A stretch of 64,000 nt of DNA. It comes from Malacoraja senta (Eukaryota). Position numbers and translations under genes: made by a program. Below are positions 1,280-59,826 of this stretch, in pieces. The stretch lies in assembly GCA_038087875.1 (NCBI GenBank), contig CM075988.1, positions 18,664,001 through 18,728,000 of the forward strand, given 5' to 3'. The first letter of the stretch is position 1. Each line of letters opens with the position of its first letter. The notes beneath the pieces are model-generated. The model was not told where the DNA came from. It saw nothing but the letters and a program-made list of their open reading frames with translations, and searched no databases.

Positions 1280-1525
1280 GACACAAGCAACTGCAGACGC
1301 TGGAATCATGAGAGAAACACAAAACGCTGGAGGAACTCAGCGGGTCAGGCATCATCTGTGGAGGGAGGAACTGCAGATGCTGGTTTAAACCAAAGTTAGA
1401 CGCAAATAGCTGGTCAGACAGCATCTCTGGAGAAAAGGAATAGGTGACGTTTCGGGTTGGGATCCTTCTTCAGAGCTTTTCTCCAGAGATGCTGTCTGAC
1501 CCTCCAGCTTTTTGTGTCTACCATC
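1280..1525. mobile_element. Cluster of Penelope-pLTR-derived short elements
   Basis: Recurrent motif gctggagtaactcagcggg...cagcatctctggaga...ggtgacgtttcggg...ccttcttcag, present in both orientations. Confidence 0.75.
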
Positions 1526-2454: not shown

Positions 2455-2714
2455 TCACAGTGGTGCAGCAGCAAAGTCGCCGCCTCACAGGGCCAGAGAC
2501 CCGGCTTCGTTCCTGACTACGGGTGCTGTCTGTGTGGAGTTTGCATGACCTCCCGATAACCGCATGGATTTTCTCCGGATGCTCTGTTTTCTTCCCACAT
2601 CCCATAGTTCAGTTTATTGTCTTTATTGTTAGTTTCGGTTTTTTAGTTCTGCAGGTTAATTGTCGCTAATGTGTAGAATGTGGATGAAAAAGTGGGAGGA
2701 CATAGAACTAGTGA

Positions 2715-2829
2715 AGAAGAAGAAGAAGAAGAAGAAGAAGAAGAAGGGTTTCGGCCCGAAACGTTGCCTACTTCCTTCGCTCCATAGATGCTGCCGCACC
2801 CGCTGAGTTTCTCCAGCAATTTTGTCTAC
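2715..2829 (+). mobile_element. Penelope-pLTR-derived insert with an (AAG)n expansion, nested in a SINE
   Basis: Flanked by a perfect 14-bp TSD catagaactagtga (2701-2714 and 2830-2843). Confidence 0.85.
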
Positions 2830-3899
2830 CATAGAACTAGTGAGAATAGGTGATTGATGGTCAGTGTGGACATGGTGGGCCGAAGGACCTATTTCCATAC
2901 TGTATCTCTAAGACAAAAAGTAAAAGCTAAATTCTTGCTTGCCGCAGCTTAACAGATCTGTAACTGCCTACCTGTAATCATTTATCACTTGCCAGACTTT
3001 TCACCCAGGAGTGTTTTGAGGAGATGTAGATCTCATTGTGTGGAATTGTAATGATCTCTGATTAGATGACCTCGCATGTCTTTGGGTAATAATTGGACTG
3101 GTCTGGGTCACAACCTTCAGCTGTCCCTTAATATTTGTTACTTTTGCTGCTGGCTTGAGAGCTTCAAATGTCATTGAAATATGTGACTCACAAAGAACTG
3201 TTGCAATTAAGTTGATTCCTGTTAATGGCCAATGTCTGATAGCTTTTTAATTCCCATGCACAGACAGAAATGATGTGATGTTGCAGTCTCTTCATCATTC
3301 TTACGACTAATGGCTCGTTTGCCATCAGTTTAATTTAGTTTAGAGATATGACGTGGAAACAGGCCCTTCGGTTCACCGAGCCTGCTCTGACCGGCGATCC
3401 ACCCATACATTAGTTCTATCTTACACTCTTACCCAAGCCAATTAACCTACAATTGCATGTCTTTGGAATGTGGAAGGAAACCGGAGCACCCAGAGAAAAT
3501 CCATGTAGTCATAGGGAGAACGTGCAAACTCCGCACATACAGCACCCGTTGAATGGACAGACAACGTCTCGTGATGAGAAAGTTGGGAAATAAACTGAGA
3601 AGGGTTTCAATGAGTTAAGTCCAATGAATGAAATTCATTCTGAGAATTGCAAGAATGCGCCTGGATCTCTGTGTTTGCTGAAAATGATTCATTAGATTGT
3701 TCAATGGAGTTTAATGCAATAACAACGTACATCTGAGCAGATATCATGTATTTTCATTGGTGGATGAATTGCTAGATGAGAACATCACAGGATATTAATC
3801 TGTCACACGTTAATTGGAACCATACTAGGATCAAGAAATAACACTTGGTTTACCTCTTGCCGTTTTTGTTTCTGTTCTTTATATTCTTTCTCAAGGCTT

Positions 3900-4708: not shown

Positions 4709-6095
4709 ATCAGGCTCTTGAACACTGCACAACACTAACCTCAAATATGAACTTCTATGCACTGTCTTTAGTTGTAATATGGACTGAAGATGGACACAAA
4801 ATGCTGAAATAACTCAGCGGGACAGGCAGCATCTCTGGATGGAAGGAACGGGTGAAGTTTCAGGTTGAGACCCTTCTTCAGACTATAGACTAGTGGTGTT
4901 TTGCTTGTGTTGCAGTTATTAACTCATTGAATTTTAGTTTAGTTTATTTATTTTTTAGTTTAGTTTAGAGAAACAGGCCCTTCCAGCGCACCGGGTCCAC
5001 GCCGACCAGCGACCCCACACATTAACACTATCCTATACCCACTAGGGACAAGTTTTACATGTACCAAGCCAATTAACCTACAAACCTGTACGTCTTTGGA
5101 GTTATTCCATATTATTTATGTGCATTGTGTTTCCAGGCCTGTTGTGCTGTTACAAGTAAGAATTTCATTGTTCCGTTGTCAGTACATACAACAATGAAAC
5201 ACTCTCTTCTCTCTTGACTCTTCAAGATCAGGCAAGATTCACATTGTCATGCGTATTGTCATGCGTATCTAGGTGCAGTGAACTGCTTTGTTTTGCAGCC
5301 AACTCGGTAAAATCACACAGCAGACCTCACCTGGGCACAACACAAGAATTGCCGACAATGTTACAGAAGTTACAAAATTGAGTTGGATGAAGACCAATCT
5401 TCAAGATTGAGTGACGTTTGTTCAAGAATAGGGACTGGACAAGTTAGTAGGGAAGAACTTGCTTGTTTTTGAACAATAACATTATGGAAACAGTCCCAAC
5501 TCTCTGAAACCTGTGGCCTAGATTTTGGTGCTTAAAATCCATTGACCAGGGCTTGAGCCCACAACATCTTGAATCAGAAACAAGGGAGCGACTGAACAAA
5601 GGGCAACGCTTGCCAAAACCAAACATGAATAAATGCACAAGTTAAAGCTTGGATGCTTTCCGATATAGAAAAATCAATAATTTTCAATGTAGCTATTGTT
5701 ACAAGACAGGGAAGGATTATATTACATTTGCAAAGCTTAAGGTCAAAAACAACATTTGGAAAGTAAATATTTGGGTCAGATTCCATCAAGTGGTTCCAAA
5801 TTTCAGAGCGCATAGGTCGAACGCTGGTGAGTTGTGGATTTTAACTCACATTATGCCTCTGGAGATTCTGAACCATATGTGTAGGAAGTGAACTGCAGAT
5901 GCTGGTTTAAACTGAAGATAGACACTAAATGCTGGAGTAACTCAGCATGACAGGAAGCATCTCTGGAGAGAAGGAATGGGTGACGTTTCGGGCCGAGACG
6001 CTTCGTCACACTATATGAACCAAATGGTCAGATTTAAAGCTCATCAGTCCACTTACACACATGTTTCCAGAGGACCTGCGCCCAGCTATTTCACA

Positions 6096-6333
6096 AAATG
6101 CTGGAGTAACTCAGCGGGACAGGCAGCATCTCTGGAGAGAAGGATGGGTGACGTTTCGGGTCGAGGCCCTTCTTCAGACTGAATAAGGGTCTCGACCCGA
6201 AACATCCAAAATTTCTCGACCTGAAACGTCACCCATTCCTTCTCTCCAGAGATGCTGCCTGTCCCGCTGAGTTACTCCAGCATTTTGTGTCTATCTGCGG
6301 TTTAAACCAGCATCTGCAGTTCCTTCCTACACA
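6096..6333. mobile_element. Fold-back (inverted) Penelope-pLTR element with hammerhead motifs on both strands
   Basis: The left arm is the reverse complement of the right arm. TSD cccagc(t/a)atttcaca at 6081-6095 and 6334-6348. Confidence 0.85.
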
Positions 6334-7643
6334 CCCAGCAATTTCACACCAGACTCCATATTAAGGCATTCAGAGCTGCAAATTATATCTTCAATCAGTA
6401 TTTCAATCTAACACTGGATTGTCAGATTATTCATTTTCGAAGACAGTCCCTTTATCTTGCCCACTCCCTGCCACTGGAAATAGTTTAAGACAAGAAGATC
6501 CAAAGAACGGTATCAACAGCAATATCACATCAAAGGTCTATGATTCCTCAGACATTGTCCTTTGTAGGGGGTTATAGCTGGCACTCACTTTAGATAATAA
6601 ACCATTTCAAGTGCATAACATGCTCTATTACATCAAACGCCGCTGTCATTTTCAAACAATTTTATTTGGAATTGTATACCATTTCATTCTTTGGGTTATA
6701 ATGTATATTTATAGAGTGTTATTACTGTTGGAAATGTCGGCAATTCTCCCTTCATTTTTCAAGCGATAATGCCTTGTTGTTGATAATGCCTAGCTGAGGA
6801 AAAATCTCTTGTCTCCTTCCTCACACGTTATGTTATGTCACTGCGATAAGTACACTCGGACGCCTCCTCAGTCCCGAAGTCCATCTGATTATCACTCAAC
6901 AGACAAGAGGGAAAACAGACTGGAACTGATAAGAAACAGAATGAGAAAAGGTGATTTGTATCATCACATTGTGTGCATAGAAAAGTATGAAAGTTGCAAA
7001 ATCCGCAAATCAGAAATGAAATCAAGATATGCCAGATGTATCCTCCAACATCCTGTAAGGGTCCACGCAGGTTAATACTTTATCTGCCGACCCTTTATAA
7101 ACCAGCTTTCTGAAAAAATCTATGCCTGAAGAGCTGAACTGATTGCAAATCTGCAGTGTTTCGAGCACTGTCTGTTTTAATTATCTTCTTTAATATCTGT
7201 ATGTCTCATAAACTTTATGCAACCATTTAACTTCCTGAGGCAAAACTCTGTAAAAATCTCCTGTATCTCAATATCACAGGACATCTAACTGTCCATTTTT
7301 TTTAAGCTATTCTAAGCTATTTGCCTTCCTGATTAGATGTTGCCGTGACTATGGTGCTTAGAATTGTCCTTGGAATTGTTCACCTGAGAGGGCTGCATAG
7401 AAACTCATAGAACATGCAATATAAAACAGTACAGATAGACAGAAAATGCTGGGGTAACTCAGGGGGACAGGCAGCATCTGCGGAGAGAAGGAATGGGTGA
7501 CGTTTTGGGTCGATCCTCATAAACCTTCTCTGCATTCTTTCCTGCTTAATGATATTCCTCCTACAGTGGGTGACCAAATCTAAACACCATACTCCAAATA
7601 TGGCCTCACCAATGCCTTGTATAACTGTAACATAACATCCTAA

Positions 7644-7963: not shown

Positions 7964-10900
7964 TAAGTCTACCTACCTACAGACTCGCATGCCTTTGGAG
8001 TGTGGGAGGCAACTGGAGCAACCGGAGAAAACCCACGTGGTCACGGGGAGAACGTACAAACTCCGTACAGACAGCAACCGCAGTCAGGATTGAACCCGGG
8101 ACTCTGGCGCTGTAAGGCAGCAACTCTACCGCTGCCTTATAACTGCAAAACAACATCCTAACTTCTGTACTCAATAACCTGACTGATGAAGACCAATGAG
8201 CCAAAGCCTTCTTTACTGCTCTATGAAGGATGGTAAGTAAAGACTTTGATTACCAGCAAAGTAAACTTGCCATGAATAAATTAAAATAAATCTTCTCCAT
8301 AAAGGGACTCAGTGCGGAGCTGGGATTGGTGGAAAACAGCACCTTTATATAACATCATTACTCAAATAGTGTGAGATTAAAAGCAACAAATAAAATAAAT
8401 CTTCCCTCTCGAGTTACAGGAGTAAATAATTATAGTGGAGTGCTCTGCCTGGCCAAGCGTTGCTGAGGTTTTCTCAGGATTGCCACTTGTTTTGGCCCCA
8501 GAGGAGGCCAGCTCATTACAGGAAGACATCCAAGCACGGCACTAATTTGACAAATTCACTCAACGTGACTTTATGAAATTTAGTTTAGTTTGGAGATGCA
8601 GCACGGAAACAGGCCCTCCGTAGTCAGGATCGAACCCGGGTCCCCGCCGCTGTAAGGCAGCAACTCTACCGCTGCACCACCATGCCACCCCTCATAAACT
8701 GGTACACTTCAAAAAGTTCACCCCTCAGCTCTAATGTCCCCACCACAGCCTACCCAACCTCTCCATGTAACTTGCTCTGGTCTTGCTCTCGTTCCTGTAG
8801 AAACATAGAAACATAGAAAAATTGGTGCAGGAGTTGGCCATTTGGCCCTTCGAGCCATTCAATATGATCATGACTGATCATCTAAAATCAGTACCCCGTT
8901 CCGGCTTTTTCCCCATATCCCTTGATTCCTTTAGCCCTAAGAGCTAAATCTAACTCTCTCAGGAGTTAGGAGTGTCCCGTCAGCAAGCAAGAGGATGCAA
9001 CAGGATGGAAAAGTCCTTTGGAGCGATTTATCCAAAAGCCCAATTCAATTATTTATTATAAGTTGTCTATTACTGGCCATGCACCGATACATCCATTCAA
9101 CATTCTCTTTCATATTTATCCTTCAAGGTCTGCATTCCTAACGAATGCATATGTGCTAATCCTTCATCTCTCCCCGTGTACAACGACCCTGGTACAAGAA
9201 CTCAGTTTCTATCATTTCTACAATTAACATTTTAAAATACGGTTTGATTTTACTCCTGTGGTACTGATGATCTTTCCATTGAATATTCTGATGACTCTGC
9301 ATATTTCAGAGCCGCATGTCTCGTTGGATTTCCTGATAAATTATCTCAATGAATGCTAATGCATGAAGGTTCTTTGATATGCGTTATGCAAATATTGCTG
9401 ATTATCTCCCAAAACTCTAACAAAGCTTTTCCACATAAGACCGTATAAGACCCCACAAAGCCTTCAAACGGTGACTGAGATATCACGCTGTGGATGGCAT
9501 TCTTTGTCCAGTGACACAAGGCTGTAGTTCATGACTCAAGGATCAAGTATCAAGAGTGTTGAATTGTCATATGTACCAACAAGAGAACAAGAACATTCCT
9601 ATTTGCTGCAGCTATGTAAACACAATAACACACAGACAAATATATGATAATCTAAAATACATTAAATTAGCAATCACAATACTAGGTAACCCAAAAAGTG
9701 CAAAACCGAAGTCTGTAATGCAACCAAAGATACTGTCCATGGAAGATTAAGTTAGTCTGAAGAAGGGTCTCGACCCAAAACGTCACCCATTCCTTCTCTC
9801 CAGAGATGTTGCCTGTTCCGCTGAGTTACTCCAGCTTTTTGTGTCTATCTTTAGTTTAAACCAGCATCTGCAGTTTCTTCTTACACATCTGCAGTTCCTT
9901 CTTTTCCACATGATAGTTGCTGAGATCAGTATTGTGCAGGTCACGGTTTTCAGGCTCCTGTATTTTCCTCCACCTATTTGTAGGTTAATTGGCTTGATAT
10001 GATTGTAAATTGTCCCCAGTGCGTGTAGGAGAGTGCTAATGCACGGGGATCGCTGGTCGGCGCGAACTTGGTGGGCCAAAGGGCCAGTTTCCGTGCTGTA
10101 TCTCTACAACTAAACTAAAACTATATTGCTCTAATGCTGCAACATTATATTGTGCGATCTAGGTACTTTTCTTTTTGCACCACCTGTTGTTCTTGTGCAG
10201 AGCTTGTTTGCACTCATGCGTGGTATGACTTGATTTGACTAGATAGCTTGCAACCAAAAGGTTTACGCTGAACCTTGGTAGGTTTCAATAATAACCAAAT
10301 ACCTATCACAGAACACCATTACCCTCACTGAGATCTGATGCTGTTATTAACATCACCATGAGACTATGGTTTGATGCTCACATTTCACTCAGCAAGTGCC
10401 TATTTTAACGGGGGAAATTTAGTTCTCTTCTTGACTTGTCAGTACTGCATTAAAGTTGCATGAAAATATTCCAATAATTATGGACTCGAAGGTCAATAGG
10501 CAAACGTGGAGTGTATAACTTATTAAAACGTATCAAAGCGAAAGATTTCTTAAATCTATACAGATCATTCCGTCTTATGTGAGGTTAATGCTGAATTTCA
10601 GCAGACAGAGAGTGGTATTCTTGTTTGATGATGCTTACTATTGATGGAGTGATTTCAGTTTTACTGTCGAGTGAAGAGCAGAACTTAGGTGGTTTGTAAA
10701 ACAACGCTTGAGCAAAATACCCGATCTGAACATGAAAAGACTGTTGAAGATGTAAATCCACACAAGGTCTTCAGTATGGAAACAACAAGACCTACTCTAT
10801 AATTCCACAAAATAACGCTTCTGCAGCAAGACTTCATACCAGAGCTTGTTCCATGGGCACTTTAAGTAAAAGACAAGCTTGTTAGATTGGTGGTAATGTT

Positions 10901-11951
10901 GGCTGTAGATAAAGGAAATTGATCATTCAAAACCCACTCCAGGTGTTGTGTAGATAGTCAGAGGTTTAGCTTAGTTTAGTGATGCAGCGCGGAAACAGGC
11001 CCTGTGGCCCATTGAGTCCGCCCCCGACCAGCGATCACCCCGTACACTACTAGCACGAGGGACAATATTACAATGACCATATTACCAAAGCCAATTAACC
11101 CCCAAACCTGTACGTCTTTTGAGTGTGTGAGGAAACGGGAGGCCCTGGAGAAAACCCACGTGGTCACGGGGAGAATGTACAGACTCTGTACAGACAGCAC
11201 CCATAGTCAGGATCGAGCTAGAGTCTCTGGTACTGTAAGAGAACAACACTACCGTTGCGCCACCGTGCTGGGAAGAAACTTTTCTTGGAGGTCACAGTTT
11301 TCAAGCTCCTGTACCTTCTTGCCAATGGTATTGGTGAGACGAGAACGTGGCCAGGGTGGTGTGGGTCTCTGATGATGCTGGCTGCCTTTTTGAGGCAGCG
11401 CCTCCTGTAGATCCCTTCAATGGTGGGGAGGTCAGTACCAGTGATGGACTGGGCAATGTCTACCACTCTCTGTAGTCTCTCCTTTGTTCCTTGAGATCCA
11501 AATCCAAATTACACCGACTGCAGAGTATTTTGGGCTGGTGTGAAGGCACTGTATCACTCCAGCACATTCATAAAACATCTTGACAATCCACCACCAATAG
11601 TGAAGGAAAGCGGAATAATTTGTTACAGTTTGGCCCTGCACAGAAGAGCAGAAAATTTATGTTTTGAAGCATCATTCAAAAACTTTGAACGTGGCATTTC
11701 CCCACGCATATTTCATAAATTGAAATTCCCTCGAACATCATAAATTTTAGTAAGAAATTTTAAACTTGTCTTTGCGCGAGGATTGCTGTCAGTGAAAAAT
11801 CCATGCCTTGTAAAAATTCAAATCTTCATATCTCATGTGTCCATCAATTTGATATTTGTAACATCTTATGGGATCAATAGCGTCATATAAAGGTAGATTA
11901 TTGTTGCTACGTGCAGTGTCGGAAGAATCAAACAACTTACATTTGAATTAA

Positions 11952-12045
11952 AGGTGGACTCAGAATGCTGGAGTAACTCAGTGGGACAGGCAGCATCTCT
12001 GGAGAGAAGGAATGGGTGACGATTTGGGTCGAGACCCATCTTCAG
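11952..12045 (-). mobile_element. Penelope-pLTR-derived short insert
   Basis: 13-bp TSD acatttgaattaa at 11939-11951 and 12046-12058. Confidence 0.8.
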
Positions 12046-13433
12046 ACATTTGAATTAATGGAGGATTAGTGTAAATGGGTGGTTTAGGTTTAGTCCATCA
12101 TTGATGGGCTGAAGGGCCTGTTTGTTAGTTTAGTTTAGAGATACAGCATACTAGAGATACTAGCCCTTTGGCCCACTGATTCCATGCCAAACATTGATCG
12201 CCCATTCACACTAGCCCCATGTTGTCCCACTTTTGCGTCCACTCCCTGCACACGAGGGGCAATTTACAGAGCCGATTAACCTGCAAACCTGCACGTCTAC
12301 GGGATGTGGGAGGAAACTGGAGCACCCATAGGAAACCCAAGCGGTCACGGGGAGAATGTGCAAAATCCACACAGACAGCACTCGCGGTCAGGATCGAACT
12401 TTGTTCTCATGCGCTGCGAGGCAACGGGTCTACCATCACTCTATTGTCCAACTGGGGAATATCTATCTAAATCCTTTCTGCTGATATTCTAGCGTGCTGT
12501 GTTGCTATGTAGGATTTGGACCACAGCTGAATCCTCCCCTCCACCCATGCTTGCCTCCCGTGTTTTTCCCCTGGCTGCACTTACTTTTTGATTGAAAGCC
12601 GGCGGCCTCCCTCCTGCAGCTGACAAACAGGGGGGAGAGGATGGTTGTGATCAGGCATGGGTGACGTATCTGGGCCACGCTGGTTGCCTTCAGGTGGACC
12701 GCTGCAGGTAGGAGACTTTGATGCCTCTGATAATCAGACTAACATAAAATGTCTTCCGATGGATACGTTGCAAGAAATGAATAAAGATAAAGAAAATATC
12801 GCGTGTGGTTTCATTGCGATTTTTTTCTTTCCTCCCACGGTGGCACAGTGACAGATCGGGTAGAGCCGCTTCCTCACAGTGCCAAAGACCTCCATCCTGA
12901 CCTCGGGTGCTCTTTGTGTGGAGTTTGCACATTCTCCTTGTGACCTTGTGGGTTTCCTCCAGGTGCTCTGGTTTTGTAGGTTAATTGGCCTCTATTAAAT
13001 GTCCCCTAAAGCGCACGGAATGGGACAACATTGAACTTGTGTGAACAGGCGATCGTTGGTCACTGTGTACATGGTGGGCCGAAGGGCCTGTTTCCATGCT
13101 GTACCTCTAAGCTAAACTCAACTAGAAACAAAGAAATGCAGATGATGGTTTATACCAAAGATAGACACAAAGTGCTGGAGTAACTCAGTGGGTCAGGCAG
13201 CATCACTGGAGAAATAGGATGGGTGACATTTCAGGTTGGGACCCTCCTTCAGACTGCTTCTTCAGAAGATGGTTCCATCCCGAAAAATCACCTATTCTTT
13301 TTCTCCAGAGATGCTGCCTGACCCGCTGAGTTACTTCAGCACTTTGTGTCCATATGTGCCTTTTTAAGTGTTTTAATAAATGCACAATAACCTGCCTGAC
13401 TTCTACAGTACTTGTGTAAAGAGGAACTGCAGA

Positions 13434-14188: not shown

Positions 14189-14959
14189 AGGTCTGCAGAT
14201 GCTGGTTTAAACCAAAGACAGACACAAGTAGCTGGAGGGTCAGATGGCCTCTCTGGAGAAAAGGAATAGGTAATGTTTCAGGTCGAGACCCTTCCTCAGA
14301 CTGAGGAGATTTCGCAGTGGAGCCTGAAGAAGGGTTTCGACCCTATTCCTTTTCTCCGGCGAGGCTGCCTCCCCCGCTGAGTTACTCCAGCTTTTTGTGT
14401 CTGTACAGAACTTTTTTCTGTTGCAATGAAAGGGAATAATTTAGGTGAAGATTATTTATTATGAGCTAGATTTGAAATCTCAAAAGCTTTAGCAAAGCTT
14501 TATCTCATTGCTGAATATTAGTCTCAGACATTTCAGTTCACAATATATGTAAACACTGGTCTTTGACAGAAGGAGCTGACGTGAATTCAATCAGATGCCT
14601 TGGTTTCACTCCGTGTAATAATATTGACTCTTCATAAAAGCGCATTGAAAAGATTACAAATCCGCAATTCAAAATTCATCAAGGAATTCATTAAAATTTT
14701 AAGATTTCATATAAGTAAGCTGTATCCTAACTCATATTAAGGCAGATTTCCAATCTAGGACATAGTCATAGAGTCATTGAGCTATGCAGCATGGAAATAG
14801 GCCCTTTCTATGGTCTTACAATGACACTTTCTTGCTTCCAATTTCCCCCTACAATCAGTCAGAAGGGACCCGACACGAAACGTCACCTATCTGCAAGGAA
14901 ATCATTCAAAATCCAATTACTGGAGTTAACTATATTGCTTTTTGAGAAACATGGTTTTC

Positions 14960-27200: not shown

Positions 27201-27322
27201 CTGAACCCCCAAGACACAAATGCCTCATCTGTTTCTCTTCCCAGAACAATAAAGAATAAACACAGCCTCAGCAACCACAACTGAACTATTATAACAATTA
27301 CTGGAGGAAATCAACGGGTCAG

Positions 27323-29332: not shown

Positions 29333-29874
29333 GGGCTCTAAAAGATAGCGGAGTCAGGGGATATGGGGAAAAGGCAGGAACGGGGTACTGATTGTGCATG
29401 ATCAGCTATGATCACAGTGAATGGTGGTGCTGGCTGGAAGGGCCGAATAGCCTACTCCTGCACCTATTGTCTATTGACTATCCTAGGGACAATTTACAAT
29501 TTTTACCGATGCCAATTAACCTACAAACCTGTATATCTTTGGAGTGTGTGAGGAAACATGTGTACCCGGAGAAAACCCACGCAGTCATAGGGACAACGTA
29601 CAAACTCTGTACATCAGAATCGAACCCAGGTCTCTGGCGCTGTAAGGCAGCAACTCTACCGCTGCGCCACAGTGCTGCCCCATTTTATTAATTTATTCAT
29701 TGTTCTATTCATTCCTGGAATGTGGTACTCACTGGCATTCATTGCTATCCGAATTCTTCAAATGGCGTTGTATATATTGGGCATACAGTTTTAAGAATGA
29801 ATCATATTGTGCTGTATATCAAGCACTTAACATATAACACAGACCAGTACTCTTCATAGTACGTAAATCCTTTC

Positions 29875-30302
29875 CGTCCTTTGCCACTGTCAGAGTGAGG
29901 CTACACAATAATTGGATGAACAGCACCTCATATTTCACTTGGGCAGCTTACAACCCAGCGTTATAAATGTTGAATTCTCCAATTTCCTAACTCCGCATAA
30001 CCACCCCTCCCCTCCATCCCCCCTCCCCCACCCTAGTCATCCTACCAGTTCCACTGTTGGGATCCTTGTATTCCTCTGGTTAACACGTCTTCCACAGCCA
30101 ACAATGGGCCATTATGAACTCCACCCTTCCTAGGGTCATCTGATGCCGGCCCTGATTTGTTCGGTCCTTTCCAGTTTTCACCTCCGCCTCCACCTTTATC
30201 TTTCAGTCTGAAGAAGGGTTCCAACCCAAAACATCACCTATTCCCTTTCTCCAGAGATGCTGCCCGACCCGCCGAGTAACTCCAGCATTTTGTGTCTATC
30301 TT
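29875..30302 (+). mobile_element. Penelope-like element 3' end (endonuclease C-terminus, UTR, pLTR)
   Basis: EQHLIFHLGSLQPSVINVEFS, then a pyrimidine-rich UTR and the pLTR/hammerhead motif at about 30207-30240. Confidence 0.8.
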
Positions 30303-33638: not shown

Positions 33639-34069
33639 TTCTATGACATTGCCACAATTCGCCTCTGTGCTTCACCAACATGGTAACAGCTCAGCCTGGT
33701 TACATCTGACATTTTGAAATGCAAAGGGGTTGTGAGACGAACAGACATATTATTTTCTTGTTTGTTCTCTCTCTCCCCAGCGAGATGATTTTGATCAGCA
33801 CCAGAGGTTACCATGTATAAGATCACATTCCATGGATCTTATCCCAGGCACTGTGACCATTGGGATGGATTTACCTGCACTCCGTTTTAGTTTATGTCTG
33901 GTTTAGATCTGAATAAGGGTTTCAACCCGAAACGTCACCTATTCCTTTTCTCCAGAGATGCTGCCTGACCCACTGAATTACTCCAGCATTTTGTGTCTAT
34001 CTTCGGTGTAAACCAGCATCTGCAGTTCCTTCTTACACCTTTTTAGTTTAGTTTAGTTTAGGTTAGTTT

Positions 34070-36882: not shown

Positions 36883-36998
36883 ATAGGAACCTGAAAACCG
36901 TGACCTCCAGGTTCAAGAACAGACTCTTCCTGGCAACCATCAGGCTCTTGAACACTGCACAACACTATCCTCAGCAACGATGATCTTCTATAGACTGT

Positions 36999-37112
36999 AG
37001 ACAAAAATGCTGGAGAAATTCAGTGGGTGAGTGATGCTGCCTCACCCGCTGAGTTTCCCCAGCATTTTTATCCACCTTCGATTTTTCCAGCATCTGCAGT
37101 TCTTCCTTAAAA
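36999..37112. mobile_element. Short fold-back pLTR-derived insert
   Basis: 16-bp TSD atcttctatagactgt at 36983-36998 and 37113-37128. Confidence 0.8.
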
Positions 37113-39794
37113 ATCTTCTATAGACTGTGTCTTTGGTTGCACAACAGATTTTGGCACTCTTATGGTTAACACTTTACTCTTTTGATGATGAATATGGTCA
37201 AATATTTGTTCTCCCCTCAGTTTGGGATCGTTAGGAATGAGCAACAGAGCCAGACATTGTCAATAACATCAATATACATGTTTTAATAAAAAAACATGAT
37301 GCTGCCTCTTTAACTGTTTTTGATTATATTGCTAGAAGGATAAATCTTGCCTATTTTACTGGGCGAATTCTCCCAGCTCTTTTGTTTACATACATCTGAC
37401 ACCAAAGATGAGTTTTTTAGTTTTTAGTTCAGAGATACAGCATGGAAATAGGCTCTTCAGACTCCAGTCATTTAGAGAGTCATAGAGAGCGGAAACAGGC
37501 CCTTCAGCCCAACCTGCCCACGACGACCAACATGCCCCATCTACGCTAGTCCCACCTACCTGCGTTTGGTCCATATCCCTCTAAATCTAGAAGTAGAATA
37601 GGCCCAACGATACCTGTACATTAGCACCATCCCACACACGAGGAAGAATTTACAATTTTACTGAAGCCAATTAACCTACATCTTTGGAGCATGTGAGGAA
37701 ACCGGAGCACCCGGGGATAACCCACGTGCTCACAGGGAGGTCGTGCAAACTCCTTACAAACAGCAGCCATAGTCAGGATCGATCCGGGTCTTTGGCGCTG
37801 TAAGGCAGCAACACGCCTACACATGTGCAGGTTTGTAGGCTAATTGGCTTGGTAAAATTGTAAATTGTCCCAAATGTGTGTACGATAGTGTTAGTGTGCA
37901 GGGCTCGGTGGGTCGAAGGGCCTGTTTTGAAGCTGTATCTACAAACTAAACTAAACTAAACTAAATTAAATTAAACCAAATTAAACTAAACAGCAGATCA
38001 GATGAAATAGTGGCGGAGCAACTCCGACCTAATAGCTCAGGCCCTCGTGTCCTGGCAACATCCTTGTTAATCTTCTCTGCACTGTTTCCAGCTCAATGGC
38101 ATCTTTCCTACAGAAGGGCGACCTAAACTGAACACAGGACTCCAAGTACAGCCTCACCAACCTCTTGTACTACTGTAACATAATGTCCCAACTTCCATAC
38201 TCAGTGTCCCTACTGATGAAGGCCAGCATTCCAAAAGCCTTCTTCACCACCACATCTACCTGCACCGCCATCACTGTTTGTGGGACCTTCCCTTGTATAA
38301 AATAACTTGCGGTATGTGAGTGAAGAACGACACTTCGTATTGGTTGAACCTGCCTTGAGTCTGTACGAAGGATACAAACCTGAAACGTCACCTATCCATG
38401 TCCTCCAGAGATGTTTTGGAAGGAACTGCAGAGGCTGGTTTGAACCGAAGATAGACACAAAATGCTGGAGTAAATCAGCAGGGCAGGCAGCATCTCTGAA
38501 TGCTGGGAGAAGGAATGTGTGACGTTATGGGTCAAGACACTTCTTCATACTCCAGAGATGTTGCCTGACCTGCTGAGTTACTACAGCATTTTGGGGTTTT
38601 ACTTGTGAAGAGAAGAGACTCGTTTGTAAAGCATCACATTGCAGTAAAAATGTCATGAGGCATAATTCCTACCTATAAAATCCTCCACAGTTAAAACGAT
38701 ATTTCTGGTGAATAATCTCTGCATTTCTTCTTATTGTTCCCTTTGCAATTGGTTCCAGGAAAAATGATTTTAAAAAAGGGATTGTCGTTATTTTAATTGC
38801 CTGCATACTCGACATTCCAGCTCCCTGCACTCCACAGCCAAGATCACAGTGAAACCTGTCCCTGCTTCAGAGTAGCTCTGTGTGAGGCACTTTAACATAT
38901 AACAATGTCGCTCGCAGGTGATAAATATTTCACATGTAGATGCAATGCAGATGGTGTTACAACATCGTAAATGCCTGCTTCCCTCTGCAAAATTCTTCAA
39001 GTAAAAGATTTAACTTCAGTAAGAAGAAGCAGATTGCGTGCGAGTCCGTTAAACTGGTGGAAAACGTACCCGAGGAGGGGAATGGGAGTGAAGAGTGAAT
39101 GGGAAAGCACCCGGCACATTTTCGTAAATTGGTCACTCGGTGACTAAATATAGGATTTAAAACTATGGCAAGATAAAGTTACACCATCAACTTTCTGATG
39201 AGCAGAGACGATTTGAAGAACTGAGAAATATATTCTACACAGTCCATATTCTACACTCTGGAATTTTTCTCTTTGCACCACGTGTTGTACCATTGCATGA
39301 CTTCATTGCCCTGATGTATATCTACTTTGACTTTATAGCTCGCAAGCAACAGCTATTCAGTCCATGAGACAATAATAAGCCAGTACCAATAATTAAAAAG
39401 TCAAAGTGTCCAACACATTCCTTGACTTCTTCTTAAGTGGAATGGGTGATGGGGAATGTGGCTTTCATTGAAGTTGGGTCAATGGAGGTACAGTCATGCA
39501 TTAGGACACAAAGTGCTGGAGGAACGCAGTGGGTCAGGCAGCATTGCAGGAGGACACGGATTGGTGACGTTTTGGGTTGAGACTCTTCTTTGCGTTGATT
39601 GTAGGTGGGAGGGGGAGGCGGGAGAGAAAAGTGGAAAAGGGGAGAGGCAGGAAGTGAGAAAATAAGAAATCTCAGATGTACTTGGGTGAAGATCGGACTT
39701 TGCAGAGACTTGGAGGTTGCAAGATGATGACAGAACGTGGCGACTGTCTGCAGGCTGTTCCAGAAGAGGATCTATTGTACTCATGCATGGCCTA

Positions 39795-40340
39795 CGCTTG
39801 GTCTCACCGATGTAGATCAGCTGACATCTAGAGCAGCGGATGCAATAGATGAGGTTGGAGGAAATGCAGTTGAACCTCTGTCGCACCTGGAACGACTGCT
39901 TGGGTCCTTGAATGGAGTCGAGGGGGGAGGTAAAGCGACAAGTGTAGCATCTCTTGCGGTTGCAAGGGAAAGTGCCCGGGGAGGGGGTGGTGCGGTAAGG
40001 AAGGGAAGAATTGGGAGTTATGGAGGGAGCGGTCTTTGCGGAAAGCAGACAGGGGGGGAGATGGGAAGATGTGGCGAGTGGTGGGGTCACATTGGAGGTG
40101 GCAATGATCTATTCTCCTAGCTAACAATGATCTATTCTACATTTCCCTTAATCCCGCATCTCTTTTGATATCTAATTTTCACACCTTACCCTTCCTTACC
40201 TCTGTGTCTCCCTCTCGCCGACTCTCAGTCTGAAGAAGGGTCTCGAGCGGAAAAGCCACCCACTCCTTCTCTCCAGAGATCCTGCCTGGCCCGCTGAGTT
40301 ACTCCAGCATTTTGTGTCTATCTTCGGTGTAAACCAGCAT
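39795..40340 (-). mobile_element. Penelope-like element: GIY-YIG endonuclease fragment with an upstream inverted pLTR
   Basis: Minus frame TFPCNRKRCYTC...FQVRQRFNCISSNLIYCIRCSRCQLIYIGETKRR (zinc linker plus GIY-YIG). The plus-strand UTR/pLTR at 40110-40340 is inverted relative to the ORF. Confidence 0.88.
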
Positions 40341-41145
40341 CTGCAGTTCCTTCCTGCACACGATGCTGGAATCCGCTACGATTAGCTGAACACGCTGAGG
40401 ATTACTAAGTAAGGAGAACTGCGGAGGGGAAGCTCAGACACACTAAACCAGGAGCGCACCCGATAATACAAAACACTTCATATTGTCGCGGGAACTAAAT
40501 CAGCCGTTCACTTTATTCCACATAGAAATTAGAAGATTAGAATCAATACAAGAGGGAAATGCAGGCATTTCTTGTTATACAATAAAAATCCCAGGAATGA
40601 CTGACACTTATCTCTGATCATACTTGAAATATATATTATTTAACTGGGGATAAATGCATTTCATGAGACTAAGCCATGTCCCATGATATGGTGTTGTCAG
40701 CATCAATTCCACCAGCCATCAGTAATACTCCAAGCCATGAATAAATGCCTACCAAAGTAGAAACATACTTTTTTAAAAACATGACTTACAGTGAGATGAG
40801 TTTGTTTTCATTGTGACAATTCCAACAATGAAGCAGAGATTTCATCCTGAAGGTGGTGATGAGTTTATTTTGGGATTTTCTGAGGCTGTATCACAACCAG
40901 AGACATGGAAGTGTCTCTGTGCCCCCGAATGGGAGTTAGAGAGCTGGGAAACCTGGTCTCCACTTAACATGGGGCATGTTCATAGGGAAACACACATGCT
41001 GCTGGTAGTGGGTTCAAACCCCAACCCAGAGTGGGGTGAAGTGTCGGACCAAACTGCAGATGCTGGTTATACAACGGAGATAGACACAAAATGCTGGAGT
41101 AACTCAGCGGGACGGGCAGCATCTCTGGAGAGAAGGAATGGCAGA

Positions 41146-41176
41146 CTGAAGAAGGGTCTAGACCCGAAACGTCACC
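41146..41176 (+). ncRNA. Minimal hammerhead ribozyme motif in a pLTR (best-preserved copy)
   Basis: CUGAAGA-A-GGGU(CUAG)ACCC-GAAA-CG-UC: canonical core, 4-bp helix II, palindromic ACGU in place of helix III, GUC triplet. Confidence 0.65.
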
Positions 41177-41374
41177 CATTCCTTTCCTCCAGAGATGCTG
41201 CCTGTCCCACTGAGTTACTCCAGCATTTTGTGTCTGTGTCACGCTGGAGTGAGGTATAAATGTATTTGTGTTCCGATATACAGTAAAGGCACAGGTGGCA
41301 TGGTGGCGTAGCAGTAGAGTTGCTGCCTTAGACCCAGGTTTGAACCTGACTACATGTTTTATTTTTATTTTTTT

Positions 41375-41680
41375 TTAGTTTTTGAGATACAGCGCAGAAA
41401 CAGGCCCTTCGGCCCATCAGGTCCGCGCCGACCAGCGATCCCCGCATATTAACACTATCCTACACACACTAGGGACCACCTTGTACATTTACCAAGCCAA
41501 TTAACCTACAAACCTGTACGTCTTTGGTGTGTGGGAGGAAACCGAAGATCTCGGAGAAAACCTACGCAGGTCACGGGGAGAACGTACAGACTCCGTACAG
41601 ACAGCACCCGTAGTCGGGATCGAACCGGGTCTCTGGCGCTGCATTCGCTGTAAGGCAGCAACTCTACCGCTGCGCCACCT
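41375..41680 (-). mobile_element. Full-length HE1-like V-SINE
   Basis: Complete reverse-complement head, body and tail. Head-to-head with a partial plus-strand copy at 41697-41905. Confidence 0.88.
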
Positions 41681-46618: not shown

Positions 46619-49600
46619 TATATACACATACACAAACATATATACATATATCCACACATAAGCCACATACATACATACATACATATATTATTGCATATGC
46701 ACGCATGCAAACATACATATACACAGTTTATAAACAATTATCCAAATTCTATGTACATCACGAACATCACACTGTCAATAAACTAAAACTTAACCATCAT
46801 CACAGCCCTTCCTCATTTTTATACCTCTGGAAAATAATATTATTGCACTTCTTCTTACACTGAGTAATGTTTATGACTTTTAAAAGACATTTGGACAGAT
46901 ATATGGCTAGGTAGAGATTAGAGGGCCTTATCTGAGGCTGTGCCCTCTAGTCCTAGACTCTCCCTCTCATGGAAATATCTTCTCAACATCAACTCTATCC
47001 AGGGCTTTCATTATTCGGTAAGTTCCAATGAGATCCACCCGTATCATTTGCCTTCAATGAGAGGCATTTCATTGAAGGCCTGAAGATGCTGCTTTTCAAG
47101 CAAATGAGACTAGTTCAATATGCCACCTAGGTCAGCATGGACCAGGTGGGCTGAAGGGCCTATTTCAGAGCTGAACAGCTCTATGACTGTGGTATTTTAA
47201 TACGGCCTGGAAGGTTAGACCTTGTTTCTGCCCGGCATTGTATCTGGTTGGGACTTGATACCACAAACCATCTAACCAAAGAGGTGGATGTGAAAGCAAC
47301 CTAAATAAAGATAAATGATACAATTTGTACAAAATGGATTTGAGATGATATTTTATCAATTATATTTTATCAGTTTCATGCTACATAATTCCACACACAA
47401 TGAGCAGCATATACCTCACAATTAATGATGCAAAACATATGATAAAATGTGTTAATTGACCATTAGCATTAATCCATGCGACCAAATGAAGATTTGATTG
47501 AGACACAAATGAAATGTAGCAACAGTGACAGTTCACTTAATGTTAACTAATCATTGCTGGGACCAGATGATCAATGCAGTCTTACCTAAGGTTGCAGCAC
47601 ATCGCAAAATGCTGGTGGAACTCAACGGGTCAGGCAGCATCTGTGGGGGGAATGGACAGGCTATGTCTCAGGTTGGTACCCTTCTTCAGACCCGTCCCAA
47701 ATCTTTGTTTGTCCGTTCCCTCCACAGATGCTGCCTGACCCGCTGAGTTCCTCCAGCACTTTGTTCTCAAGATTCCAGCATCTGCAGTTCCTTTTGTTTT
47801 CCACAAGGCATGTTTCGTCCAGTGCTTTCATAGGAGTCAGGCCCAAAGTCTGATGCATGGATTAACCTTTGTAGTTCTCTTTTTAATCAGTCCAATGAAA
47901 AGGTTAAGTCCACAAAGCCGTGAAAAGGTCCTCAGTTTTTATACAAATTATAAAACAGATTTCATTGCAATTATCAGGCTGAAGATACAAAAGTTTGAAA
48001 GCATAAGCCACCAGATTCAGAAAATGCTTTTTCCCCACCTTATCAGACTACCGAATGGAACTCCCATAGTCTTGGGTGTAATCCTGATCTTCCAATCAAC
48101 CTCTTTGCGGAACTCGGAATTTTTCTGCAGTCCGGTATTTTTCTCTTTGCACCATCTGTTGTACTTGGATCCGGCTTGATTGTACTCATGTGTAGTATGA
48201 CTTGAGTGGACAGCACACAGACAAAGTATTTCACTGTATGTTGGTACACGGGACTCTAATAAAACAATAGTGTGTGAATTCAGTCTGAAGAAGTATCCTG
48301 ACTCGAAACGTCACAGATCCTTTGTCTCCAGAGATGCTGCCTTACTCCAGCACTTTGTGTCTAAGTGTTGGAAGGAACTGCAGATGCTGGTTTAAACGGA
48401 GGATAGGCGCAAAAAGCTGGAGTAGCTCAGCTTTGTGTCTATCTTTGGTATAAACCAGCATCAGCTATCTACTATCTACCTCATTGGAGATGCTCAGACT
48501 ACCTTTGATCGGACTTTACTGCCTGTATCTTGCACTAAACATTGTTCACATTATTCCCTTAATCATGTATCTGCACACTGTGAATAAGTTAAGTGGAATC
48601 ACGTATTGTTTTTCCGATGACTGGTTAGCACGCAACAAAAACTTTTACTGTACCTCGGTACACGTGGCGATAAATAAACTCACTCACTCACGCACTTGCA
48701 GTTCCTTCCTGCACACATAACCAATAGCAATACTGGCTCGCAGGGCACAGTTTGGCTGCCATGTTTCCCTCTTTATTTCATGGCCCTCACCCGCCACTAA
48801 TATTTAATTGGCTCCAAAGATGCATTCAGCAAATCTTTTTGTGCCTTTTAAAGCCAGTTGTGCTTGTTGATATTATATCCTGGGATTAGCTGCAGACATG
48901 TTGGGCAGTCTCTCGATGCCAGTTGCTTTGTCCAATTGCAGAGTTGAATAGCGCCTGCACCATGATCCAGAACATGGTGCCAGTGGCTTCAATGTTTGCT
49001 TGTTATTTTTTGCCCATTTAAGGCAAATGAACAAGAAGCCTCATGCCAGACTTGGCATCCAGCTGAGAGCGACCGCCAATGGTAGCTGGTGAGAGGGAAG
49101 AATTAAATTAGCTATATAATCAGTGCTGGATTACGAGAATTTGATTTCCAGCTTCAATGAAGGCAAATGGCTCCCTGATTATCACATTAAGCTGCATCAT
49201 TGAACCCTAGTGTTTCTGGATTTTTTTTTCCCATAATCAGATTTGGATTATTAAAATCTGGCTTGTTATTTACCTTAATTATTTATCCGCGTTTGGAGAT
49301 AACTCATTTTGAAATTATGAGATGAGGAAGGTTTAACAAATGTCATTGTGTATCTGTATGGATTTTAGCAATTAATAACTGTCAATTTAGTTCGCTTAGT
49401 TTAGTTTATTGCCACATGTATCAAGATACAGTGAACAGCTTTTGTAGTGTGCTATCCAGTCAGCGGAAAGACAACATGTTTAAGAAGGAACTGCAGATGC
49501 TGGGAAATCGAAGGTAGACAAAAGTGCTGGAGAAACTCAGCGGGTGCAGCAGCATCTATGGAGTGAAGGAAATAGGCAACGTTTCGGGCCGAAACCCTTC

Positions 49601-53341: not shown

Positions 53342-53541
53342 NNNNNNNNNNNNNNNNNNNNNNNNNNNNNNNNNNNNNNNNNNNNNNNNNNNNNNNNNNN
53401 NNNNNNNNNNNNNNNNNNNNNNNNNNNNNNNNNNNNNNNNNNNNNNNNNNNNNNNNNNNNNNNNNNNNNNNNNNNNNNNNNNNNNNNNNNNNNNNNNNNN
53501 NNNNNNNNNNNNNNNNNNNNNNNNNNNNNNNNNNNNNNNNN
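53342..53541. other. Assembly gap (200 N)
   Basis: Run of N. The sequence on either side is duplicated (about 52774-53341 and 53542-54107). Confidence 0.99.
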
Positions 53542-55949
53542 ACCCTCTACCCACTCCGCTCATTTGAGTGAGAGGAATTTGCAACCCTGAACCAGGAGCT
53601 GCTGCCTGACATGCCTTAGGATGGAGCGTTCTTGACTGCGACGAGTCGCAATCTTGTCTGACATAGATGCCCCAAACTTGGCACTCACTCTGAGTTGGGG
53701 TTTGTCAGGTTGCTTCCTTCAGCAGCCGCCAGCGCTAGTTGTGCAAATGGATGCTCTGTTGGTATCTTCTTTACCAAACAGGCTGCACGCGCTAGTGACT
53801 CTGAGTCCTGCTCCTTTCCGAACGATTGCAGTCTGCTGGGAAGGACTGGAGCGTCTCTGGCCCCTGTACGCTAGACATAGTGGGAAAATGCTGAAAACCC
53901 TGCCAGTTATTTGTCTTTGTATGAACGGAGACGCCCATCCCAGTTAAATCAAAGATTTGATTCTTTATATGAATAAACTCGGCGTGTAGGGAAAAATCTT
54001 CCACAGTCCCTTTATTGAATGGAATTACCATGACACCACCATGTGTAGCTCGCACAGGTGGCTTATTGGTACAGGGCTTTCCAGGCCAGGGATCCAGATC
54101 GCCATGGCAGGTCTCATTCCACTGGGCAGGATGATTCATGTATGATACCAGGAACAACCCCTGAAGTAGCATAATGGTGCTCACTCTGTATAGCCGTATA
54201 TTTGAAAGAATATAATATAACTGCCATGGGGCATAGGGGTGTTTAGCCAACGCTCATGAATGGCAGCGTGTGCCATGGACATTCCTCTGGGGTGGGGTCA
54301 GTCACACACTGACCCATGCACACCCCTTCATCGAGAGGGAGATCTGTGAGCAGCCCTGTCACAGGTTAAGCCTGTGACCTGTGCTGACATGGCCCTGTTT
54401 TAGTGGACCATGTCAGGCTGGGTAAGACGTCCCCTAGAATGTCGGAGGGAGACCCTCCTGACCAGGACCCCACCTTTCTCGTCCAGCCCGGCCTCTCCGA
54501 CTCTGTTTGGTTGCCCCCTTTGGGCTGCCCAAGTCGAAGTCGCTGACCGTGCGACCCAGAGAGTCACCGGCTACCCGCTCTCCCGTGGTCCGTAGCCGGC
54601 ATCTGTAGAGTGAAATAGTGGCTTACCCTCAAGCGGGTTGCCTGGGTGCTACCGGCACCAGTATGAAGCCGCTGGCTCCACTGCCAGTGACTCGAACAGG
54701 CGAATTTGACCGCCGCCCGCTACCTGCATTCCGTGGTCTCCGTAGCGAGTTCCGCGGTCCGTGGGCGGGATTCCCGAGGTCGTGACTGGGATTCCCTGTG
54801 GTCCGTGACTGGGGTCCCCCGCGGTCCATAAAGGTTCTTCCGTGGCCCATCCGGACTTCGGCCCCGAAATTTAGCAGGACCTCTGTAAGGCTGACAGAGA
54901 TTCCTGCAAAACATAACCTGGAAAAAAGTTAAAAAACTTACCTTCAGGTTTGGCTGCTGTTGGAGCAGTTCTCCCCCCCCCCCCCCAGCCAGTCGTGCGC
55001 AATGCGATAGACGATATGACGCGCATGCGTGCTGGCGGGGTCTTCACGTAGTCACTCACGTGACTCCGAAGTAAAATGTTGCTGTGGGAATAGAGATTTA
55101 AGAGTGTGATTGTAATATGTGTAGGAAGGGAACTGCAGGTACTGGTTTAAACCGAAGATAGACATAAAAAGCTGGTGTAACTCAGGCGGAATGTATGGAG
55201 AGAAGGAATGGGTGACGTTTGAGTCGAGACCCTTCTTCAGACTTCAGTCAGAGATGCTGCCTGTCCTGCTGAGTTACTCCAGCTTTTTATGTCTATCTTC
55301 TATTGTAATATGTGATTGTAGATCTGCTTCTGTGGCTAGTGTAGATTGGTCACTTATTATTATTAGAAGTTCCGCCTACTACACTGTTCATATTATCGCA
55401 ACCCAACTCGTGCTGGCAGTCAACGCTGCTCCACAGCTGAAGCAACATGCTGCAGTGTATTATAGTGCCTTTCAATAAATACTGGTGCACCATGTTCGTG
55501 AGTATGACCGGGTCATTCGACAGCTAGCTAGCAAATTAGTTGCCTGCGTTGAGTGCCATGTTGGAAGCATTGTGCTAATCATAAAAATGGTTTCCATTTC
55601 TGGACATCATCTGATGCTGGGATCCAGCCGTGATCAGTGGTCGAGAGTGGGCAGAAACTAGGGTCAGAATGTGCTCAAATATGAAGTATAGACATTCAAA
55701 CCAAACCCAGAGGCCTGTGTAAACTGTCCCATGATATACTCTCCCCTGAAGAAGGGTTTTGAACCAAAATGTCATCCCTCCATTCCCTCCACACATGCTG
55801 CCTGACCCGCTGTGTTCCTCCAGCACTTTGTGTTTTTTCTAAAACTCAACGTTCCAGCATCTGCGTTTCTGGTGTTCAACGTTTCATTCAAGAGAGGGAA
55901 CATGCGGTGTCCACGGGGACTCCGAAGGCCTTCCATGAGCGCTGGTCAT

Positions 55950-57622: not shown

Positions 57623-57770
<148 letters not shown>

Positions 57771-57774
57771 CAAT

Positions 57775-58831: not shown

Positions 58832-59204
58832 TCTCAATCTGAAGAGCATCAGAGGCCACGGAACTGATTTGACGTTTAAAAAAAAAGCAAAATATGGGTA
58901 GCATTCAGGATAATTCTGCGACTATAAAACAGAATGAATCACAGGGAAGGTGCTGGAGGAACTCAGTGGGTGAGGCAGCATCTATGGAGAGAAGGAATAA
59001 GCGAAGTTTTGGGTCGAGACCCTTCTTCAGACTTGTCTACCTTCAATTTTTTCCAGCATCTGCAGTTCTTTCTTAAACATGAATCACAAGGAAGTGGTTT
59101 TGTAAAGATCTAGGATTGAAACGTCTCACCAATAATGAGGTGAGAATTGACATTGTGAATAGGATTTTACAGACATTGATGACTGGAGCCCTCACAGCTA
59201 TTTG

Positions 59205-59826
59205 CCTCAGCGACTGTTTGGCCAAACACTTGAGCTCGGTTCACCAAGTCCCACTGGATCTCCCGGTTGCTCACCATCTTAACTTCCCTTTCCATTCCCA
59301 TACTGACCTTAGATAGACACAAAACGCTGGAGTAACTCAGCGGACAGGCAGCATCTCTGGAGAGAAGGAATGGGTGACGTTTTGGGTCGAGACCCTTCCT
59401 CAGACCCGAAACGTCGCCCATTCCTTCTCTCCAGAGATGCTGCCTGTCCCGTTGTTACTCCTGATATTTGTGTCTATCTTCAGTATAAACCAGCATCTGC
59501 AGTTCCTTCTTACCCAACCTGGACCTTGCTGTCGTGGGCCTCCTCCATTGCCAGAGTGAGGCCACACGCAAACTGGAGGAACAGTACCTCATATTCCTTA
59601 CAGCCCAATGGTATGACATTGAATTATCAAATTTTAGGTGACTACAGAGCCCCCCCCCCCCCCCCTCCACCTACATTCCTTCCTCCAGCCTCACAATTCA
59701 CAACTCTTCAATCCTTTTGTCTCACACCTTTTGTTTTTTCATCTCTGGTCTTTGCCCAACCATCTTCCCATTAACCTCCTCCCCCTCATCTGTACCAACC
59801 TATTACCTGCTAGGCTTTGTCCTGCC
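59205..59826 (+). mobile_element. Penelope 3' fragment interrupted by a fold-back pLTR insert (about 59311-59515); the UTR resumes at 62062-62150
   Basis: PVAHHLN...HSHTDL and LEEQYLIF..LQPNGM remnants, pyrimidine-rich UTR. Confidence 0.7.

Follow-up and report, generated by a model that had tools for sequence, protein, structure and literature searches.

The window, a 64,000-nucleotide stretch of Malacoraja senta DNA (assembly GCA_038087875.1, contig CM075988.1, positions 18,664,001 to 18,728,000 of the forward strand), is crowded with short copies of one repeat unit that carries a hammerhead motif, and with pieces of a Penelope-like element to which the same unit is attached (Table 1). No host exon was found: all 299 frames of at least 42 aa outside self-repeats gave only transposon domains in a Pfam search, which short exons could escape. 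Other repeats include a Tc1/mariner transposase, possibly a young copy, whose frame of 343 aa is unbroken and encodes both an HTH and a DDE domain (45220-46251, minus strand), and non-LTR reverse-transcriptase fragments at 372-1058, 26168-27310, 57539-58747, 55806-57129 and 62594-63085, with Pfam RVT_1 matches at 26171, 55806 and 62594. At 15001-15226 a 116-bp unit occurs twice in tandem, each time with a B-box-like motif close to its start, and is probably a tRNA-derived SINE; a 200-N assembly gap lies within 53181-53704. Positions in the repeat unit are numbered with C3, the first hammerhead core base, as 0, which puts the A of the TCAGT just before it at -3, the canonical cut after +27, the body end near +93 and the tail end at +130.

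Table 1. The focal two-arm insert, other inserts of the unit and Penelope pieces in the window
Feature	Position	Strand	Remark
Focal insert: left TSD	6081..6095	+	15 bp, 1 mismatch to 6334-6348
Focal insert: left arm, TCAGT start to near body end, without tail	6096..6182	-	unit -5 to +86
Focal insert: minimal hammerhead core C3-C17	6150..6177	-	all core letters kept; one C-A mismatch in stem II
Focal insert: inversion centre at the unit's own short palindrome TTCAG-N-CTGAA	6173..6183	.	from the junction sequence
Focal insert: right arm, core with G8 to U, short internal duplication, body	6179..6296	+	restart at 6214
Focal insert: optional Penelope tail	6297..6333	+	37 bases, one arm only
Focal insert: right TSD	6334..6348	+	
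Two-arm insert nested in older copy of the unit	1357..1522	.	9-bp TSD
Single arm	2701..2843	+	14-bp TSD; (GAA)n run at start
Single arm	4788..4884	-	A(-3) to body end
Single arm	5878..6012	-	A(-3) to tail end
Single arm	9754..9887	+	A(-3) to tail end
Single arm	11939..12058	-	13-bp TSD
Two-arm insert	13130..13353	.	left tail, right body end
Two-arm insert	14193..14402	.	left partial tail
Penelope fragment	29737..30301	+	GIY-YIG domain end, 3' untranslated part, unit to body end
Single arm with tail	33908..34038	+	10-bp duplication
Two-arm insert without hammerhead	36983..37128	.	16-bp TSD
Two-arm insert within another copy	38418..38593	.	
Inverted Penelope ORF piece	39737..40105	-	Cys linker and GIY-YIG start (Neptune type)
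Penelope end	40106..40360	+	pyrimidine-rich upstream; A(-3) = 40227, C3 = 40230; cut site 40257/8; body end 40323-25, tail end 40360
Two-arm insert	41041..41235	.	right arm is the sole strictly intact core
Two-arm insert	47605..47793	.	divergent sequence group
Copy whose own body end holds an inserted, inverted tailed arm	48280..48465	.	inverted arm 48364-48431; 11-bp TSD
Two-arm insert	55109..55314	.	13-bp TSD
Inverted insert with non-overlapping arms	58934..59094	.	-3..+79 inverted, +85..+130; 16-bp duplication; twin-priming pattern
Two-arm insert inside Penelope GIY-YIG fragment	59311..59516	.	fragment 59206-59635

The hammerhead motif, allowing up to two mismatches, matched 18 times in the window where 0.00 matches were expected, and none of 100 shuffles reached 18. 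A BLAST search with the focal copy as query gave 77 pieces in the window, and these were grouped by hand into 29 short insertion events; the older interrupted copy near 1280-1590 was left out of the scoring of the 29. Beyond the short events there were five ends with pyrimidine-rich, Penelope-type upstream sequence (14855, 30200, 39590, 40227 and 62118). Unit sequence accounted for 4,173 bases, or 6.5% of the window, and short insertions occurred at a density of about one per 2 kb, most of them consisting of only the 95-135 base element end. With 18 motif matches and at least 29 short insertions in the window, the many-copy repeat family described in the initial annotation is real, and the coordinates given for its focal copy, 6081-6348, run exactly from TSD to TSD of one two-arm insert. 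All five TSD pairs named there were present, i.e., 2701/2830 (14 bp), 6081/6334 (15 bp, 1 mismatch), 11939/12046 (13 bp), 36983/37113 (16 bp) and 55109/55302 (13 bp). A TSD score of at least 9 was obtained for 10 of the 28 inserts tested, versus 1 of 250 mismatched flank pairs used as a control; in the other 18 inserts the TSD was weak or none was seen. Thus the earlier view that the copies were inserted independently stands, but "many" copies with their own TSDs amounts to only about one third. The palindromes reported to carry the motif on both strands fared similarly: there were 11 two-arm inserts, but most of the core was found on both strands in only three of them (6096, 13130 and 14193). 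Exact-pattern scans for the unit in viral contigs and metagenome contigs gave no match. One TSD-flanked copy contains a (GAA)11 microsatellite, at 2713-2746, that has grown out of the first hammerhead box.

With ten related proteins as queries, GIY-YIG coding fragments were found at 29737-29986, 39737-40105 (inverted) and 59206-59635. The frame at 39791-40105 (minus strand) contains a C-x4-C-x2-C linker (P0001) and the start of the GIY-YIG domain. Two named relatives of this ORF piece, 74-78% identical, are annotated in skates, and it also matches proteins of 816-891 aa with RVT_1 plus GIY-YIG at the C terminus (P0059, P0152), the Pfam scores being below cut-off for both domains of P0059 and for the GIY-YIG domain of P0152 (E<=7e-4). 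Neither an RT piece of the parent Penelope nor a full-length Penelope copy was found in the window, and the start of the ORF could not be located. The features of EN+ Penelope elements that were found are an RT followed by a C-terminal GIY-YIG domain in the related proteins, the Cys-rich linker, the optional tail and the inverted pLTR. The parent is presumably of the Neptune rather than the Nematis clade, judged by host range. The Cys linker between RT and EN is common to both clades (PMC8557442). The unit terminates real Penelope fragments, with ends at 30301 and 40360 and GIY-YIG coding sequence attached, as had been proposed. This attachment, together with majority letters that spell a minimal hammerhead, bears out an origin from a hammerhead-bearing Penelope pLTR, and the TSDs and the link to GIY-YIG fragments support the proposed mobilisation by Penelope RT/GIY-YIG. 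That the short copies, or stubs, are Penelope-derived and Penelope-mobilised is virtually certain. The skate proteins P0002 and P0003 end in the element's GIY-YIG region fused to host sequence; these fusions are likely gene-prediction artefacts or exonisation.

The stubs have a fixed 5' end. In 21 of the 29 events the 5'-most base lay within -5..+1 of C3, the mode being -3 (7 events), and the remaining eight events started at +2, +6, +11, +13, +24, +41, +45 and +63. Against a crude uniform null, and with the five ends carrying Penelope-type upstream sequence left out, the clustering of starts had p=6e-15. Four of the 21 fixed starts lie at the limit of the scored unit (-5), and their true ends may be a few bases farther out. 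By eye, a TSD or the other arm borders about 15 of the 21, and these starts are therefore not explained by upstream sequence having decayed. The initial annotation had suggested looking for insert ends clustered at the GUC cut; no start among the 29 window events fell there (+25..+31).

The same start was seen when contigs of four public runs, X1, X2, X15 and X18, were mapped on 39780-40440; at least 266,852 pieces were mapped in X1 and at least 147,654 in X2. X1 may come from the source sample, and X15 and X18 are possibly RNA, but as contigs they carry no information on expression. The long pieces listed in the four runs start at 40220-40228. Among the joints listed, head-to-tail joints from 40360 to 40227, i.e., to A(-3), were found in 24, 18, 2 and 1 contigs of the four runs, and joints from 40319 to 40228 in 11, 4, 0 and 1 contigs. 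No joint at the GUC cut was present among the 15 joints listed, 351 further joints in the four runs lying outside the listing. At 40217 the summed depth of every one of the four runs increases roughly tenfold, a step that is weak evidence because the ORF piece is covered as deeply as the hammerhead (in X1, 1.0-6.9 million versus 2.1-3.6 million). The depth step may partly reflect divergence between subfamilies in the upstream sequence.

The TCAGT at the start fits the initiator consensus, and the odds are somewhat better than even that the fixed 5' end is a transcription start at this initiator-like sequence. Single-arm copies show no added G ahead of A(-3), such as a cap usually leaves behind. 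The start also overlaps a short palindrome and a YAG splice-acceptor-like site, and because of this coincidence other causes are confounded with a transcription start. A spliced 5' exon was ruled out, there being no shared sequence upstream of the copies, as was a ribozyme cut in another register, C(-4)/A(-3), in which, by eye, helix I and III cannot pair. In D. virilis Penelope an internal promoter with an initiator lies in the pLTR (PMC2377424). Unlike the start seen here, that of the D. virilis element is about 120 bases upstream of the ribozyme, beyond the intron (PMC2377424, PMC4209133).

At their 3' ends the copies terminate at either of two sites 35-37 bases apart, the body end or the tail end. 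In X1, X2 and X18, loose ends with random continuation clustered at 40323-25 and at 40360; in X15 the clusters were at 40318 and 40360. The two ends are those of the known Penelope tail, which is delimited by two internal reverse-transcription start sites (PMC11167929). Among single arms, eight were tailed and nine untailed, and one was interrupted. In the two-arm inserts, all 11 pairs consist of an arm that ends at +116..+130 and another that ends at +79..+98; by a hand estimate, the chance of such a one-tail-per-pair rule is about 0.5^11. A helix between body and tail, of eight pairs, was 88% paired, without covariation.

Inverted pLTRs, known from Penelope-like elements and invoked in the initial annotation, are thus represented by 11 two-arm inserts with one tailed and one untailed arm each. 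Arms within one insert share non-majority letters at 19 of 546 sites (3.5%), versus 41 of 5,481 (0.7%) between inserts, and none of 5000 re-pairings gave sharing as high; ten of the 11 pairs were used, the non-overlapping pair being left out. Judged from these shared letters, the arms of one insert derive from a single template lineage or became homogenised afterwards. Inversion centres differ among the two-arm inserts, and it follows that the palindrome is built at insertion rather than copied from a master. In X1 and X2, inverted joints connect 40316-25 with 40359-61, and the window holds such a case at 48364-48431, with an 11-bp TSD. Body end to inverted tail end is the largest joint class among those listed, with seven of the 15 rows listed and at least 209 contigs in X1, which suggests insertion of the element into its own end, a self-targeting hot spot.

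Rotifer Penelope elements are the precedent for a fold-back, or self-priming, model of inverted pairs, the one favoured there (PMC3846280). Here the fixed 5' end might likewise be an artefact of processing or folding: while an ordinary long Penelope RNA is being copied, the cDNA would stall, or fold back on itself, on reaching the short palindrome or the splice-acceptor-like site. The centres of inserts 6096 and 41041 do lie within the short palindrome, and a short deletion would be enough to derive those of 47605 and 59311 from it; fold-back is compatible with 10 of the 11 two-arm inserts, provided that later deletions are allowed. Further, palindromes occur in rotifer pLTRs at the 5' ends and the inversion junctions (PMC3846280), and the D. 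virilis intron ends at helix I (PMC4209133). Telling against such an artefact, TSD-bearing single arms stop at the same place (4884, 6012, 12047, 33908 and 2740), the copies have no shared upstream exon, and head-to-tail joints use the same base. Insert 58951, moreover, has non-overlapping arms, so that two primings on RNA are required and a fold-back copy is impossible, while the other ten two-arm inserts fit either twin priming or fold-back at the start palindrome. An artefactual 5' end is improbable on this evidence.

The majority letters of alignment A1 give a minimal type I hammerhead that is complete, its stem II being 4 bp and its helix I only 2 bp long. The minimal type I hammerhead of Cervera and de la Pena consists of CUGANGA, an extra base, stem II, GAAA, palindromic 15.2-16.2 and UH (PMC4209133). 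Its definition has a helix I of 4-5 bp; the helix here has 2 bp, as in the D. virilis variant (PMC4209133). Individual copies are mostly broken. A strictly intact hammerhead was found in only 1 of the 24 arms spanning the core, or 2 of 24 when stem II is allowed to have 3 bp, and G12, which lies in a CpG, is A in 11 of 30. Non-CpG identity was 248/267 (92.9%) for the core versus 1563/1740 (89.8%) for the body; a core more conserved than its surroundings, which the initial annotation had named as a check, was therefore not significantly indicated (p=0.12). No compensatory two-sided change was found in six pairs. One-sided G-U changes preserve stem II and helix I in one sequence group.

Folding gave a similar picture. 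In five single arms that were folded, the pairing probability of stem II was at most 0.13, and the dimer scaffold came to -10.5 versus -19.8 kcal/mol for the best fold. RNAalifold, given the gappy alignment, returned no predicted pair. A transcript running through a two-arm copy would form a hairpin predicted at -26 to -167 kcal/mol; for the focal copy the predicted fold is a hairpin of -174 kcal/mol (z -21.9). The focal minus-arm core is predicted to be paired within this hairpin, and the plus arm has G8 changed to U; in palindromes generally, the hammerhead core is predicted to be buried in the hairpin. The Rfam search that had been suggested gave no match at gathering score in the window, and the 15 weak matches at 40100-41400 included no hammerhead family. 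Rfam hammerhead models expect helix III. Weak Rfam matches to miRNAs were set aside, since they reflect the hairpin only. The idea that transcribed copies would add self-cleavage sites to host transcripts is not sustained by one strictly intact arm in 24 and a G12 that is A in 11 of 30, and such added cleavage is unlikely for nearly all copies. The low stem II probability fits the protein requirement published for the anole ribozyme (PMC11167929). The units also caution that genomic hammerhead counts overstate the number of active ribozymes.

The initial annotation had read the units as a retrozyme-like family, in which the RNA would be cut by dimeric hammerheads, possibly circularised, and reinserted. 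The master sequence does have every letter of a minimal hammerhead, in one group stem II and helix I are preserved through the one-sided G-U changes, and tandem retrozymes have been described in one cartilaginous fish (bioRxiv 10.64898/2026.07.22.740005). In addition, head-to-tail dimers exist genome-wide and could form the hammerhead dimer in cis. These dimers, rare in the runs (at least 24 contigs in X1), could individually qualify as retrozyme tandems. The ribozyme-processed reading nevertheless runs counter to the ends and to the state of the hammerheads. None of the 29 starts is at the cut, the dimer junction is at A(-3) and not at the cut, and copying of a circular template would not end at a single base. 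The 34 tandem-repeat rows in the window include no array of the unit, so that neither the tandem layout nor the cut-defined ends of retrozymes are seen there. Helix I has only 2 bp, stem II is seldom predicted to pair, the dimer scaffold lies above the best fold, and compensatory change is lacking. A retrozyme-like origin is very improbable, and the insertion ends are very probably not set by the ribozyme.

We favour instead, with a probability of roughly 0.55, a model in which the stubs are products of internal initiation: the Penelope RT would begin close to the 5' end of its RNA, on one or both of the nicked target strands, and copy as far as the first base, the likely transcription start. 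Penelope RNA would be terminally redundant, with a protein-binding site near the 5' end as well as the 3' end, and because of this redundancy internal initiation would be possible at the 5' copy. The Penelope endonuclease would nick the target; the nick would prime cDNA at the body-end or tail-end site of the 5' RNA copy; and the cDNA would stop at A(-3), the template's end, leaving a stub. An inverted pair would be formed if both target strands were extended, or if the first cDNA folded back at the start palindrome, and a jump to a second RNA would give the rare head-to-tail dimer. Afterwards the copies would decay neutrally, the ribozyme being a passenger that does not set the ends. Purified Penelope protein has been found to cleave and extend both strands, with internal starts at the two sites that delimit the tail, and to need no ribozyme cut (PMC11167929).

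A different possibility is that the stubs form a self-renewing, SINE-like family, with an internal promoter of their own, transcribed into the flank and picked up in trans, as an internal RT start needs no defined RNA 3' end. The window has 29 short events versus three ORF-bearing fragments, both ends of the unit are fixed, and one well-supported group (2738, 49611; 100/98) has no Penelope-attached member in the window. Rotifer pLTRs suffice in cis for mobilisation (PMC3846280), and the D. virilis pLTR provides a precedent for an internal promoter (PMC2377424). On the other side, the three Penelope-attached ends are scattered among the stubs, each in a separate part of the tree (three changes, in a tree with 1 of 27 branches well supported), and the variable inversion centres show that the palindrome is not a master. 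There is also no tRNA-type head: as to the structural-RNA head of SINEs, no tRNA and no Rfam match was found in the window, and the unit is wholly Penelope end. A self-renewing family of this kind is possible, at odds of well under one in two. Its most specific form, a pLTR-only family in which a Pol II initiator would renew the 5' end, an internal RT start would renew the 3' end, and one protein dimer would prime both strands from the two sites of one RNA, is doubtful. A SINE-like pLTR family would, if true, explain how the upstream pLTR of Penelope is regenerated. We also considered an antisense polymerase III model, from a loose A-/B-box likeness on the reverse strand (by eye), and rejected it because the target-primed outer ends of inverted pairs are sense 3' ends.

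A stub-rich genome would show, at single-base resolution, where the RNA has its 5' end and where both primings occur, and the rule of one tail per pair directly predicts what the PMC11167929 in vitro system should yield. The literature searched, Repbase and Dfam not included, contained no dense family of solo pLTR stubs whose 5' end is fixed just before the ribozyme, and the available parts of PMC5753468, PMC8969392, PMC6765202 and bioRxiv 10.1101/2025.06.08.657570 contain no description of this family.

The units resemble metazoan non-LTR retrozymes in being short, non-coding, dispersed monomers with a type I hammerhead motif and kinship to the Penelope pLTR (PMC7229834). Retrozymes are described as head-to-tail tandems of 150-450 bp with mostly canonical ribozymes and circular RNA (PMC7229834; bioRxiv 10.64898/2026.07.22.740005), whereas the units studied here seldom occur in tandem, lie head-to-head, and carry a minimal ribozyme that is broken in most copies. 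The tandem retrozyme families of the cartilaginous fish average 363 bp (bioRxiv 10.64898/2026.07.22.740005) and may include dimers of this unit. Non-autonomous Chlamys elements (MRC1) are similar in that they are non-coding and share the 3' end of an autonomous Penelope-like family, but elements of this type are longer, are often head-to-tail, and belong to a clade without canonical hammerheads (PMC8557442).

The closest likenesses are to autonomous Penelope elements. As in Neptune-clade elements, GIY-YIG follows a Cys linker, the pLTR has a minimal hammerhead, the second copy is inverted and 5'-truncated, a tail of 30-40 bp is present on one end only, TSDs are of 9-16 bp, and insertion into the element's own copies occurs (PMC8557442, PMC3846280); unlike those elements as described there, the copies here are mostly 95-135 base ends, and their 5' end is fixed rather than variably truncated. 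As in Poseidon PAc of the green anole, two adjacent RT starts would delimit the tail and both strands would be extended, and in PAc the ribozyme cut is unneeded and is unseen at read ends (PMC11167929). PAc belongs to another clade, and solo stubs with a fixed 5' end are not described in the available part of that source (PMC11167929). The behaviour of the skate element is mostly known Penelope behaviour, and each of its ingredients has already been published for Penelope-like elements.
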